Sequence record: PZ445442.1
Source of the DNA: a phage
Strand: one strand, 5' to 3'
Length of the DNA stretch: 64,000 nucleotides
Below the pieces are notes generated by a model. It saw nothing but the letters and a program-made list of their open reading frames with translations. It did not search any database and was not told the origin of the DNA. The position numbers were made by a program, and so were the translations under genes. Shown in pieces: positions 37,931 through 41,550 of this stretch. Position 1 is the first letter of the stretch; the number at the start of each line of letters is the position of its first letter.

Positions 37931-40321
37931 ATGAGTATGTGGTCGTTCGATTTTGAGTCATCCGGTTTGCTGGAAGACCCAGATCTTTATTATCACTGCG
38001 GTCTGTTTAAAGAGCTGAATAAGAACCGTTTTATGCTGTTCCTTCCTCTAAATGACCGCACACACTACTCCGAGGAGGATATAGAAAAGGCTAAGAACTT
38101 CATTCTGGCAAAGAAAACTCTTTATAAAGATTTTGAAGTTCGCATAGCAGATTTTTCGGAGTTGGAAGGTTGGCTTACAGGCAATTCTGACTGGTCACCA
38201 ACAGCTTTGAACTGCCATAACTGCTACAGTTATGACTTTATGCTGATGGAAAGATTATCCGGTATTCATTTTGATATGTTCCGTGATCCTAAATGCATGG
38301 GGACTATCAACGATCACCAGGTTAACCTGTTTGATACGTTGGCGATGAGCCGAATCTTGTGGCCTGATCGCCCTTTACCAAAAGGTTGTCCGGACTCTGT
38401 ATTCAACCCGGTTACTAAGAAAATGCAGCCTGTTGGTCCCCACGGCCTTATGGCATGGGGCTACGCCCTTGGTAACCAGAAAGTTCAAATTGATGACTGG
38501 CGCGATCTTCCGTTGTGGAAGTATGTGGATCGTGTATTCGAGGACGTTATCATCCAGGAGCTGCTCTGGAAAGAGCTGGTAGCGGAATCAAAAGGTGTAT
38601 TCTACGGCAAATCTGACATGCAGAACTTTATGTACGATCCTGCCAAAGAGAAGCCGAAAGGGTTCAAGAAGATCACCTGGAAGAACGCATTACGCCGAGG
38701 CATGCTGCAGCACTTCCTGATGGAGCTGCAGGCCCGTCAGGGTGTGTATTTTGACATAGATGGAGCTATTGCTTTACGTGACCGTTGCGATGCGTGGATG
38801 AAAGAAATCGCTGATCGTGTTGAACCACAACTACCTTTAAAAGAGTTGTCAATGTCTCAGCGGCCCAAGTTCCCTGAAAAGCCGTTTAACCAAGATGGGA
38901 CAATCTCCAATAATGGTTGGAAATGGTTAAAAGATAAGCTTGGCTATCCTGTAGATATGAGCGCTTTAGAGTTCAAAGCCCCGCCTAAGCGAGCATTTAC
39001 CTCCACAGGGGATGTCAGCAAGATGGGGATAAAATGGTGTGAAGAGATGGGCTGCAAAGACCCTGATAAGATGGCTGATTTCTTGAGAGGCTATATTAAG
39101 GGCACTTCCACACCACAACCTTTACCTAAAGAGCTGATGGATCAGGCAATAAGTGATCTGCAGCAGAAGCGAATGCCTGACTGCAAGATACCTATGAAAA
39201 TCAGCAATCAGGACGACATTAAGCGGTATCTGATCAGTGCTGGCTGGCTCCCGACGATGTGGAGAACTAAGGATGTAACTAAAGACAGCAAGAAGAAAGC
39301 CCTACCTGATGCAGATGTTGATGCACGAGTATATGCATATATGGACGAGCTTTTAGAGTCAGAGTATTGTGATCTGATTATCAACTTCTGGAACAAAACT
39401 GATGCTAAGTTCCAGACAACCGTGCACAAGTTCCGAAGCTTTCCTAACTCCGAAAGGATTAAAAAGGAAGTATTCGGGAAAATACGTAGAAAAGCTAGGG
39501 CACTTATTACTTCTCCGCAACTGAAAGATACGTTTGGACACCTATGCCCGAATCTTGAAAAATTGAACGGAGAGATGGCTAAAGATATCGTCTTGTGGTT
39601 ATCTTTGCGAAACCGCAGATCGGTACTTGATCCAATCAAGGAGGATAAGGTTGATACTGGTCTTCTTAATCACCCACGTTTGAAGATTGACCATAAGCTT
39701 CCTGCTAAAAGCTCTGGATTAACAAACACTTCCAGACAGAAACACAGTATTTGTGCAAACATGCCTAAACCATCTCCTAAAGTGGTCATGGGTAAAGAGA
39801 TGCGTAGTCTGTGGGGTGTTCCTCCAGGATACTTTGAGATCGGTATTGACGGGTCCAACTTAGAGCAGCTTATCGGGGCTTGGGGTGCCTTTGAGTTCGA
39901 CAACGGATTGTATTATGATGTTGTAAGTAACGGGGACGCACACCAAAACAATGCTGAAGCATATACAAAAGTGGCAGGCAGAGAGGTGTCTCGTAACGAC
40001 GGTAAACCTATCACGTATGGGGTTATGTATGGGGCACAAAAAGATAAAGTTGCAGATATGCTGGACATCTCTCCAGAACTGGGGCAGAGAGTAATTGATG
40101 CTCTCTGGGATGCCAACCCAGGTCTTAAGGGGCGCAAAGAGGATCTGGAGAAATTCTGGGAAGCAACAGGTAAGAAATTTATCTACTCTTTTGACGGGCA
40201 TGCCATTTGGACCCGCTCTAAACACTCTTTGCTTAATGCATATCAGCAAAATGGCGGTGCATCGTTGTGCGACTTGGTCGGAATCCTCATGCACCACCAA
40301 ATGGTGAAGCGTGGATGGTAT
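37931..40321 (+). CDS. family A DNA polymerase, exon 1 (3'-5' exo + polymerase motifs A and B)
   Basis: Exo I FDFESSGL; motif A GIDGSNLEQLIGAW; motif B KPITYGVMYGAQ; track ORF runs 12 codons further into the intron to a stop at 40360. Confidence 0.65.
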
Positions 40322-41196
40322 GATGAAGGTGTTCGTCGTATTATTTATTACCATAAATAACATTGTGGCTTCGTGCAGTGATGCACGTCGAAAACCTCTT
40401 TAATTGACGGGAAGGCTAAGTTGACTTTTACACCTAAACATGGTAAAAGCTCAATATGCTAATCCGCAGCGAAGACTAAAGGGGTGTAGTTAAAATGGCT
40501 AGATCAGTTGATTATCACGGATATACCGTGTTTGATGATGGAACAATACCTTTATCGAAACGTGATCATACAACAATGTTCTGTTTTGATAATGGTCGAG
40601 GTTACCTTTGCGTAACCATGTTCATCGAGGGGAAGCAGTGCACAAAAGGTGTCCACCACTTGGTTGCTGAATGCTTTGTATCAAACCCTGATCCTGAAAG
40701 GCTCACATGGGTGAACCATAAGGACGGAAACAAATACAACAATGCATACTGGAACCTTGAATGGACCACCCCTGGTGGAAATATCAAACACGCTTATGAT
40801 AATGACCTCAGAGTAAGGCCAGTCGGTGAGTATAATGCCAACGCTGTACTGACCGAGGATGAGGTAACGGAGATTTGCGAACTGTTACAAAGTGGTTTAC
40901 GACAATGCGAGATTAGGGATCTTGGGTATCCTTATGAGACGGTCAGAGCCATAAAGCAAAGAAGACAGTGGAAACATATCTCTAAAAACTACACCTGGTA
41001 GTAACGTTCAGAGACTATCGAAAGCATAGCGCCAACATAAATTGGTGCGAAGAAGCGAGTAGAGTAGGCCAGCAAGTGCGGTCGAAATGGGAGGTGCCTT
41101 GGTAACAAGGTAGTGAGATAGTCCGATCCATACAGGAAACTGTATGGCTGTGCACGTAATGGTGCGGGGTAGCTTAACGACCTACCTGAACTATTG
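40322..41196 (+). mobile_element. group I intron with HNH homing endonuclease ORF, inside the DNA polymerase gene
   Basis: Elements matching the conserved P (AATTGACGGGAA, 40402-40413), Q (AATCCGCAGC, 40461-40470), R (GTTCAGAGACTATC, 41006-41019) and S (GAGATAGTCC, 41115-41124) sequences; P9-like hairpin CCATACAG-GAAA-CTGTATGG (41128-41147); U at -1 (40321) and terminal G (41196); boundaries inferred. Confidence 0.6.
40495..41001 (+). CDS. intron-encoded HNH homing endonuclease
   Basis: 168 aa; HNH region GVHHLVAECFVSNPDPERLTWVNHKDGNKYNNAYWNLEW; lies between intron Q and R elements. Confidence 0.65.
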   Translation: MARSVDYHGYTVFDDGTIPLSKRDHTTMFCFDNGRGYLCVTMFIEGKQCTKGVHHLVAECFVSNPDPERLTWVNHKDGNKYNNAYWNLEWTTPGGNIKHAYDNDLRVRPVGEYNANAVLTEDEVTEICELLQSGLRQCEIRDLGYPYETVRAIKQRRQWKHISKNYTW

Positions 41197-41550
41197 GATG
41201 AGTACCAACTTCAAGTGCCTGACACACCTAAGTATAAAACCGTATACACCTTCGACACAATTGAAGAGCTGGAAACATTTAAGGCCAAGCAGGAGGCTAA
41301 ACTTCATGTGTTCGACGGTCATAAGTACAAAAAGGCACGCAAGGATGAGGATGGAAACGAAGTGGTTGACAAGGACGGAAATACGGTGTACGATCCTATC
41401 CTGAACGATGACGGAAAGCTTGAACTTATCTGGAGCCCTGTGGGTGAAATGGTGGTGCATTGCTTCTGGCAAGCTTCTAAAATGATGGGAGTCCCGTTCC
41501 AGATCACAGGTGAATACTTGTGTGGTCGTAATTGGGGTGATTGTCACTAA
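41197..41550 (+). CDS. family A DNA polymerase, exon 2 (C-terminal region)
   Basis: Begins DEYQLQV, which joined to exon 1 gives GWY|DEYQLQV (motif C-like); ends GRNWGDCH with terminal His, as I recall for T7 gp5 and E. coli Pol I. Confidence 0.55.
   Translation, partial: DEYQLQVPDTPKYKTVYTFDTIEELETFKAKQEAKLHVFDGHKYKKARKDEDGNEVVDKDGNTVYDPILNDDGKLELIWSPVGEMVVHCFWQASKMMGVPFQITGEYLCGRNWGDCH

Follow-up and report, generated by a model that had tools for sequence, protein, structure and literature searches.

In phage T4, the IA2 group I introns of td, nrdB and sunY have P7.1/P7.2 and P9.1/P9.2 elements, a stop codon a short way past the 5' splice site and, in the loop of a peripheral helix, an ORF. 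The polymerase intron of Escherichia phage EmilHeitz analysed here resembles them in all these features, while the T4 introns lie in other host genes and encode endonucleases of GIY-YIG or other families, not HNH. The mark of subgroup IA2 is a pair of additional helices, P7.1 and P7.2, which lie between P7 and P3' and are connected by G-U-A, and the T7-like phages ΦI and W31 are reported to have introns of this subgroup with an HNH ORF in P6a at polymerase 'site 881' in the E. coli Pol I numbering (PMC3428280). Phage SPO1, like EmilHeitz, has its family A polymerase gene interrupted by a group I intron, which encodes an HNH enzyme, the nicking endonuclease I-HmuI (PDB 1U3E), but it occupies site 674 in the E. 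coli numbering, in the fingers subdomain, whereas that of EmilHeitz is at 881, in motif C (PMC3428280); the introns of Bastille and Pf-WMP3 are at site 674 like that of SPO1, again a different place from EmilHeitz. In Pectobacterium phage vB_PatM_CB7 (CB7), the HNH gene CB7_50 lies between the polymerase ORFs CB7_49 and CB7_51, and splicing of this polymerase intron in infected cells has been demonstrated by RT-PCR and Sanger sequencing (PMC7344957).

In this study, we analysed the polymerase locus of a 64-kb stretch of phage DNA (the window, to which all coordinates refer; all features are on the plus strand). Megablast showed that positions 37931-41550 are 100% identical over their full length to EmilHeitz (Bas49, MZ501062.1, a Vequintavirus of the BASEL collection), with matches also in about 120 rV5-like phage records. 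The DNA polymerase of MZ501062.1, bas49_0077, is annotated as a two-piece joined CDS corresponding exactly to window 37931-41550, and bas49_0078, a 'putative homing endonuclease', lies inside it at 40495-41001. The EmilHeitz polymerase intron is thus already known, annotated in GenBank and of an ordinary, well-described kind: it is a real group I intron with an HNH homing endonuclease ORF. The BASEL authors set the intron boundaries by comparative genomics (PMC8594841); the boundaries derived here, for the same sequence, reproduce the deposited protein exactly, while neither the record nor the paper gives an RNA structure, subgroup or covariation analysis. The first-pass annotation of the window had also proposed that a group I intron with an HNH endonuclease splits a family A DNA polymerase gene, which holds, and had started the intron at 40322, which does not.

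Exon 1 (37931-40354) comprises 808 codons and ends in GVRRIIYYH. Without splicing, the reading continues as AAA TAA, so that the polymerase ORF 37931-40360 closes with a stop codon at 40358-40360; the family A signatures reported for this ORF in the first pass (FDFESSGL, GIDGSNLEQLIGAW and KPITYGVMYGAQ) are all present, as is the stop it gave at 40360. Exon 2 (41197-41550) comprises 117 codons and a stop, begins with the DE of motif C and, as described before, runs in frame to GRNWGDCH. While the protein of exon 1 gave a weak Pfam DNA_pol_A match under the cut-off, a phmmer comparison with solved structures aligned the joined exons with residues 473-658 of T7 DNA polymerase (E=1.9e-12). Motif A (GIDGS), motif B (KPITYGVMYGA) and motif C (YYHDEYQL) all fall within this alignment, though only with the exons joined at 40354/41197; the joined product has motifs A, B and C of a family A, T7 gp5-like DNA polymerase together with the catalytic Asp residues.

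The intron extends over 842 nt, 40355-41196, as delimited by intron-less alleles, and is supported by covariation and a match to the Rfam family RF00028; it opens with A40355, after exon U40354, and closes with G41196 (omega-G). For a 5' splice site at 40354/40355 there are four independent lines of evidence. A tblastn search with the joined C-terminus found the region as one unbroken 705-nt match in phages slur16, JohannBauhin, HdK5 and C15, which are about 98% identical, and the proteins of slur16, JohannBauhin and HdK5, also about 98% identical, are colinear with the spliced product. These three intron-less alleles read ATTATCTATTACCAT/GACGAATAT across the site, and the slur16 DNA at the empty site, GGTGTTCGTCGTATTATCTATTACCAT/GACGAATATCAGCTT, is continuous through CAT/GAC. 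The joined exon DNA is predicted to read TATTACCAT/GATGAGTACC, giving the junction peptide IIYYHDEYQLQVPDTPK, which spans IIYYH-DEYQLQVPDTPK. Precise removal of 40355-41196 restores an uninterrupted host gene, and comparison with the intron-less alleles leaves no sliding ambiguity at the boundaries. The 925-aa protein joined at 40354/41197 is exactly GenBank QXV77979.1. In the phmmer alignment, KRGWYDEGVRRIIYYHDEYQL pairs with KHGW-DGDFAYMAWVHDEIQV of T7 DNA polymerase, and the junction aligns with AYMAWVH/DEIQV, the canonical YYH/DEYQLQV standing against T7 VHDEIQV; the true junction falls between His and Asp of the canonical HDE in motif C. P1, finally, was located at 40351-40356/40363-40368 both by the Rfam alignment and by an independent RNAalifold prediction.

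The RNA structure was evaluated on nine distinct orthologous introns. MAFFT alignment of uncut ORF-containing and ORF-less introns misplaced the deletion, so the ORF loop was cut out of the ORF-bearing copies and the cores were aligned instead. Over the structure scored (P1, P2, P3, P4, the pseudoknot helix P7, P7.2, P8, P9, P9.1 and P9.2), 98.9% of 537 cells are standard pairs, against 36-42% in controls slid by 1-3 columns; 24 of the 60 pairs show compensatory changes on both sides, and not one of 500 shuffles came up to the real alignment in percentage paired or in covariation score. In the P1 hairpin (40351-40368), exon CCAU and intron AA (40351-40356) pair with UUGUGG (40363-40368); all six pairs are invariant in the nine sequences, and the splice-site wobble U40354·G40365 is U-G in every one. 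P10 joins the guide CAUU (40361-40364) to the 3' exon GAUG (41197-41200), its pairs being kept in 9/9 with one G-C to G-U change, and the terminal G41196 is likewise G in all nine orthologues. The conserved elements P (AATTGACGGGAA at 40402), Q (AATCCGCAGC at 40461), R (GTTCAGAGACTATC at 41006) and S (GAGATAGTCC at 41115) are each found a single time in the 64-kb window, and they follow one another in the correct order, as claimed in the first pass.

Covariation supports the P3-P8 core with its P3/P7 pseudoknot. The P3 5' strand (40395-40400) pairs with 41089-41094 in a long-range helix found by RNAalifold, with 100% of cells paired and two of six pairs compensatory; the P7 5' strand (41011-41017, part of R) pairs with 41119-41124 in S, again 100% paired, with two compensatory pairs that include the outermost (G-C to A-U), G41013-C41123 at the usual guanosine-binding position and A41012 bulged. 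RNAalifold, which cannot draw the P3/P7 pseudoknot, instead paired GUCCGAU with the 3' splice site, a helix rejected as an artefact of this limit. The P2 hairpin CGUGCA-GUGA-UGCACG (40372-40387) has all six pairs changed on both sides among orthologues, and the P8 hairpin (41095-41112) five of seven compensatory. The P4-P5 domain (40405-40468) follows the Rfam alignment, with the P4 strands at 40405-40411 (P element) and 40463-40468 (Q element) and a P5 extension hairpin at 40425-40449; P4 is 94% paired, a hand-made 1-nt register shift being needed in the Klebsiella/Certrevirus group, where CUG/CAG replaces CGG/CCG. Between P7 and P3', P7.1 (41029-41048, from the regional fold) varies in length among orthologues, and P7.2 (41067-41083) is 100% paired with one compensatory pair and preceded by GUAG in all nine sequences, the two together spanning 41029-41083. 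P9 (41128-41147, the GAAA-tetraloop hairpin noted before), P9.1 (41150-41166) and P9.2 (41167-41187) fill 41128-41187; all are 100% paired, with four, one and three compensatory pairs, respectively. The intron thus shows the IA2 pattern, with P7.1/P7.2 joined by the conserved GUA together with P9.1/P9.2.

P6/P6a (40475-41002) holds the ORF in its loop. Its 5' strand (40475-40489, ACUAAAGGGGUGUAG) and 3' strand (40989-41002, CUACACCUGGUAGU) form a predicted duplex of -17.7 kcal/mol and contain a likely Shine-Dalgarno sequence, AGGGG, and the ORF stop codon. In K54_rec6, LTH01 and PBES02 too, the loop with the ORF is closed by an equivalent helix of two parts, with different sequences, and the duplexes of the ORF-bearing lineages range from -15.6 to -23.7 kcal/mol; in ORF-less introns a short hairpin occupies this place. 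P5 and P6 lie outside the common alignment, their support coming from the Rfam alignment, from pairing by hand and from predicted duplexes. The ORF itself, bas49_0078, encodes 168 aa at 40495-41001, between Q and R as the first-pass annotation had placed it, and belongs to the HNH endonucleases of PHROG 59 (E=9e-38). Its closest solved relative is I-HmuI (1U3E, E=4.5e-6), in a match that covers only residues 12-100 and aligns the HNH motif VNHKDGNKYNNAYWNLEW with VDHKDGNKDNNLSTNLRW of I-HmuI, while the Pfam HNH_3 score is 17.7 bits, under the 24.8 cut-off; the C-terminal part is probably DNA-binding.

The covariance-model search proposed in the first pass gave a split outcome. Searched by E-value, the full RF00028 model (Intron_gpI) matched 40345-41146 with 38.9 bits (E=3.4e-8 locally, 2.1e-6 for the whole window), whereas at the Rfam gathering threshold of 50 bits the window has no match. 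In this alignment the ORF appears as an insertion of 510 nt in P6, and the low score of this copy is due to the penalty on that insert; ORF-less orthologous introns at the same site reach 64.7-91.2 bits. An Rfam E-value scan and local blastn with three orthologous introns found no further group I intron or copy in the 64-kb window. The insertion site CAU/AAR UAAC ... UUG/GAUGA (in DNA, TACCAT/AARTAAC...TTG/GATGA) is occupied in 13 sampled phages, including EmilHeitz, VB-EcoM-WM, JEP1, JLBYU08, rV5 and RudolfGeigy in Vequintavirus, 24-2-1 in Avunavirus, SSE121 in Seunavirus, CB7 and PBES02 in Certrevirus, as well as Klebsiella phage K54_rec6 and Escherichia phage LTH01. The ORF-less forms measure 276, 317, 328 and 329 nt, and empty, ORF-less and ORF-bearing states coexist among phages that are about 98% identical.

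The intron of the Certrevirus CB7, the one relative whose splicing is backed by RT-PCR, has the same insertion site, TACCAT/AAGTAAC ... TTTTG/GATGAATAC, and sequences homologous to those of EmilHeitz in P1, P2 and P7-P9.2; it differs in its 5' half, in the P4-P6 region and in its 127-aa HNH ORF, and a further intron interrupts the CB7 polymerase upstream, with no counterpart in EmilHeitz. The introns of ΦI and W31 are likened to that of EmilHeitz by their published description (IA2, HNH ORF in P6a, family A polymerase, enterobacterial phage) and by their site, 881 being, through the T7 polymerase alignment, the His of the motif C HDE; their hosts are podoviruses, whereas EmilHeitz is a large myovirus (Vequintavirus). 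Salmonella phage S.Kent 1-2-1 was considered as a candidate of the ΦI type and rejected, as its intron lies at a different polymerase site.

We therefore propose that 40355-41196 is, with high probability, a mobile IA2 group I intron between the motif C His and Asp codons of the EmilHeitz family A polymerase. The steps of splicing are inferred here by analogy with other group I introns. P1 would form in the pre-mRNA between CCAU, at the end of the 5' exon, and the internal guide UUGUGG, so that the pair U40354·G40365 marks the splice site. An external guanosine, putatively bound at the P7 pair G41013-C41123, would attack after U40354. The 3' exon GAUG would then pair with CAUU as P10, with the terminal G41196 entering the G-binding site, and exon ligation would yield the 925-aa polymerase reading IIYYH-DEYQLQV. 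A working polymerase, and with it a viable phage, needs this splicing, because the unspliced 809-aa protein is without the Asp and Glu that make up the carboxylates of motif C. The HNH product, for its part, presumably acts on polymerase alleles that lack the intron, in relatives infecting the same cell, by nicking or cutting them, and their repair would copy the intron in (homing).

That the intron might instead begin at 40322, with exons joined at 40321/41197 into a 914-aa polymerase reading WY/DEYQLQV with Tyr in motif C, was the proposal of the first-pass annotation. U40321 and G41196 do fit the rule of U at -1 and a terminal G, and drawing by hand even yields a plausible-looking P1 (GAUGGUAU with GUAUUAUU, 40338-40345) together with a P10, but this construct was rejected: JLBYU08 has C at -1, most relatives having C rather than U at the position of 40321 (TAC versus TAT), and the Rfam alignment and RNAalifold put P1 at 40351-40368. 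The 33 nt 40322-40354, encoding DEGVRRIIYYH, are exon because intron-less alleles contain them, which puts the proposed 5' site 33 nt too far upstream, and the T7 polymerase alignment needs these 11 residues. Their deletion by the 40321/41197 junction is what produced the apparent Tyr, so the unusual motif is an artefact, the real junction giving YYH/DE; the 'shared GATGA context' cited for that junction is a coincidence, GATGA occurring 148 times in the window. The 914-aa product is absent from a collection of 15 billion protein sequences, while the deposited product has 925 aa. We give this placement practically no credence, although its 3' boundary, 41196/41197, was correct.

The gene product could also be imagined as two assembling polypeptides of 809 aa and about 117 aa, the insertion staying unspliced. 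The NrdA gene of Aeromonas phage Aeh1, split by mobE, is said to be expressed as two assembling polypeptides, and many GenBank records list two separate 'DNA polymerase' ORFs. An HNH-associated insertion in another CB7 gene did not splice, but the CB7 intron at the polymerase site does (PMC7344957). The split would moreover sit between His and Asp of the catalytic HDE, and the downstream frame has no ATG in this phage (TTG at 41194) and lies within P9.2-3' intron sequence; the strongly covarying RNA of 276-329 nt that ORF-less introns retain would not be explained by selection other than for splicing. Two polypeptides are thus highly improbable. An intein was rejected, the insert being out of frame with a stop codon at 40358. 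Less far-fetched, but still unlikely, is a decayed element or inactive endonuclease, with splicing kept and homing lost: the ORF-less derivatives of 276, 317, 328 and 329 nt imply that the endonuclease gene has been lost repeatedly, and Pfam HNH_3 stays under threshold. However, the 168-aa ORF is intact, its HNH residues align with I-HmuI, it occurs at at least 90% identity in 31 phage records, and the presence/absence polymorphism at about 98% identity, like the occupation of the site in several genera, seems, indirectly, to fit ongoing mobility of the intron.

The first 12 nt of exon 2 occur in two linked synonymous versions, GATGAGTACCAA and GACGAATATCAG. It is conceivable, though rather doubtful, that the intron lineage at the H/DE site moved between unrelated phages, the T7-like podoviruses ΦI/W31 and several Vequintavirinae genera, and that the two versions represent endonuclease-sensitive and endonuclease-resistant targets. 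If this reading were true, P10 pairing would constrain which version intron-bearing alleles carry, and the locus would illustrate, on a modest scale, how intron, endonuclease and target evolve together, without being an element of a new kind.

In the rV5 genome paper, terminase introns are the only ones mentioned and the polymerase has a stated length of 775 aa, and in the rV5 RefSeq record the polymerase is still split, with two hypothetical ORFs inside the intron. Many public Vequintavirus records likewise break the polymerase up into two or three ORFs and list spurious 'hypothetical proteins' within the intron, annotations that the boundaries CAU/AAAUAAC ... UUG/GAUGA and the structural alignment would allow to be corrected. 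The EmilHeitz intron opens no new question; it is another homing intron to be found where an essential phage gene encodes its most conserved catalytic motif, and its residual value lies in annotation and in its allele series, the close relatives showing the full range of ORF-bearing, several ORF-less and empty-site forms, which is usable for studying homing.

At the start of exon 2, across the window and the related sequences L002, L004, L015 and L016, the opening 12 nt (41197-41208 of the window) come in two versions, GATGAGTACCAA and GACGAATATCAG, whose differences are linked and synonymous. Either version is present in intron-less alleles, and JLBYU08, which carries an ORF-less intron, has a hybrid start of exon 2, GATGAATATCAG, in which the GAUG needed for P10 is retained. 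This could reflect a variable target site of the endonuclease, or the stretch could be a tract of co-conversion.

The polymerase genes of two close relatives, VB-EcoM-WM (L003, 3014-3979) and JEP1, carry a 322-aa in-frame insertion in exon 1, directly after ...SNGDAH, at a site corresponding to about 39941-39946 of the window (polymerase codons 671/672), where the window polymerase has no such insertion. The inserted segment starts with CYSGDTQILTEKGW, ends with ...VAVCGN followed by Cys, and includes a LAGLIDADG-like stretch, LLIAIHDDGNL. The insertion resembles an intein that carries a homing endonuclease, although a Pfam search of it returned no match.

In the rV5 RefSeq record (NC_011041, L011) the polymerase is annotated as separate ORFs 228 and 225, and two ORFs labelled 'hypothetical protein' (226 and 227) fall within the 276-nt ORF-less intron (L011 151-426) or extend across it; many other Vequintavirus records are annotated in this way. 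In addition, about 20 'Campylobacter phage' records (MG0656xx; in the phage collection, for example, MG065635, MG065654 and MG065658), labelled with C. jejuni as host, share 86-98% identity with the E. coli Vequintavirus polymerase region of the window, and probably their host labels are wrong or the samples were mixed.

A further group I intron, likewise containing an HNH ORF, interrupts the family A polymerase gene of Salmonella phage S.Kent 1-2-1 (L014, 944-1575), but at ...RLSASNP|NMQQLP rather than H|DE; its 3' terminal part (P9.1-P9.2) shares 79% identity over 74 nt with the window intron. The intron of Pectobacterium phage CB7 (L008, 934-1620), on the other hand, occupies the H|DE site and has P1, P2 and P7-P9.2 in common with the window intron family, while its P4-P6 region is different and its 127-aa HNH ORF is unrelated to that of the window. 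CB7, K54_rec6 and relatives have a second HNH-containing insertion upstream of this site in the polymerase gene. The unrelated ORF and different P4-P6 beside common P1, P2 and P7-P9.2 suggest that the endonuclease module was replaced.
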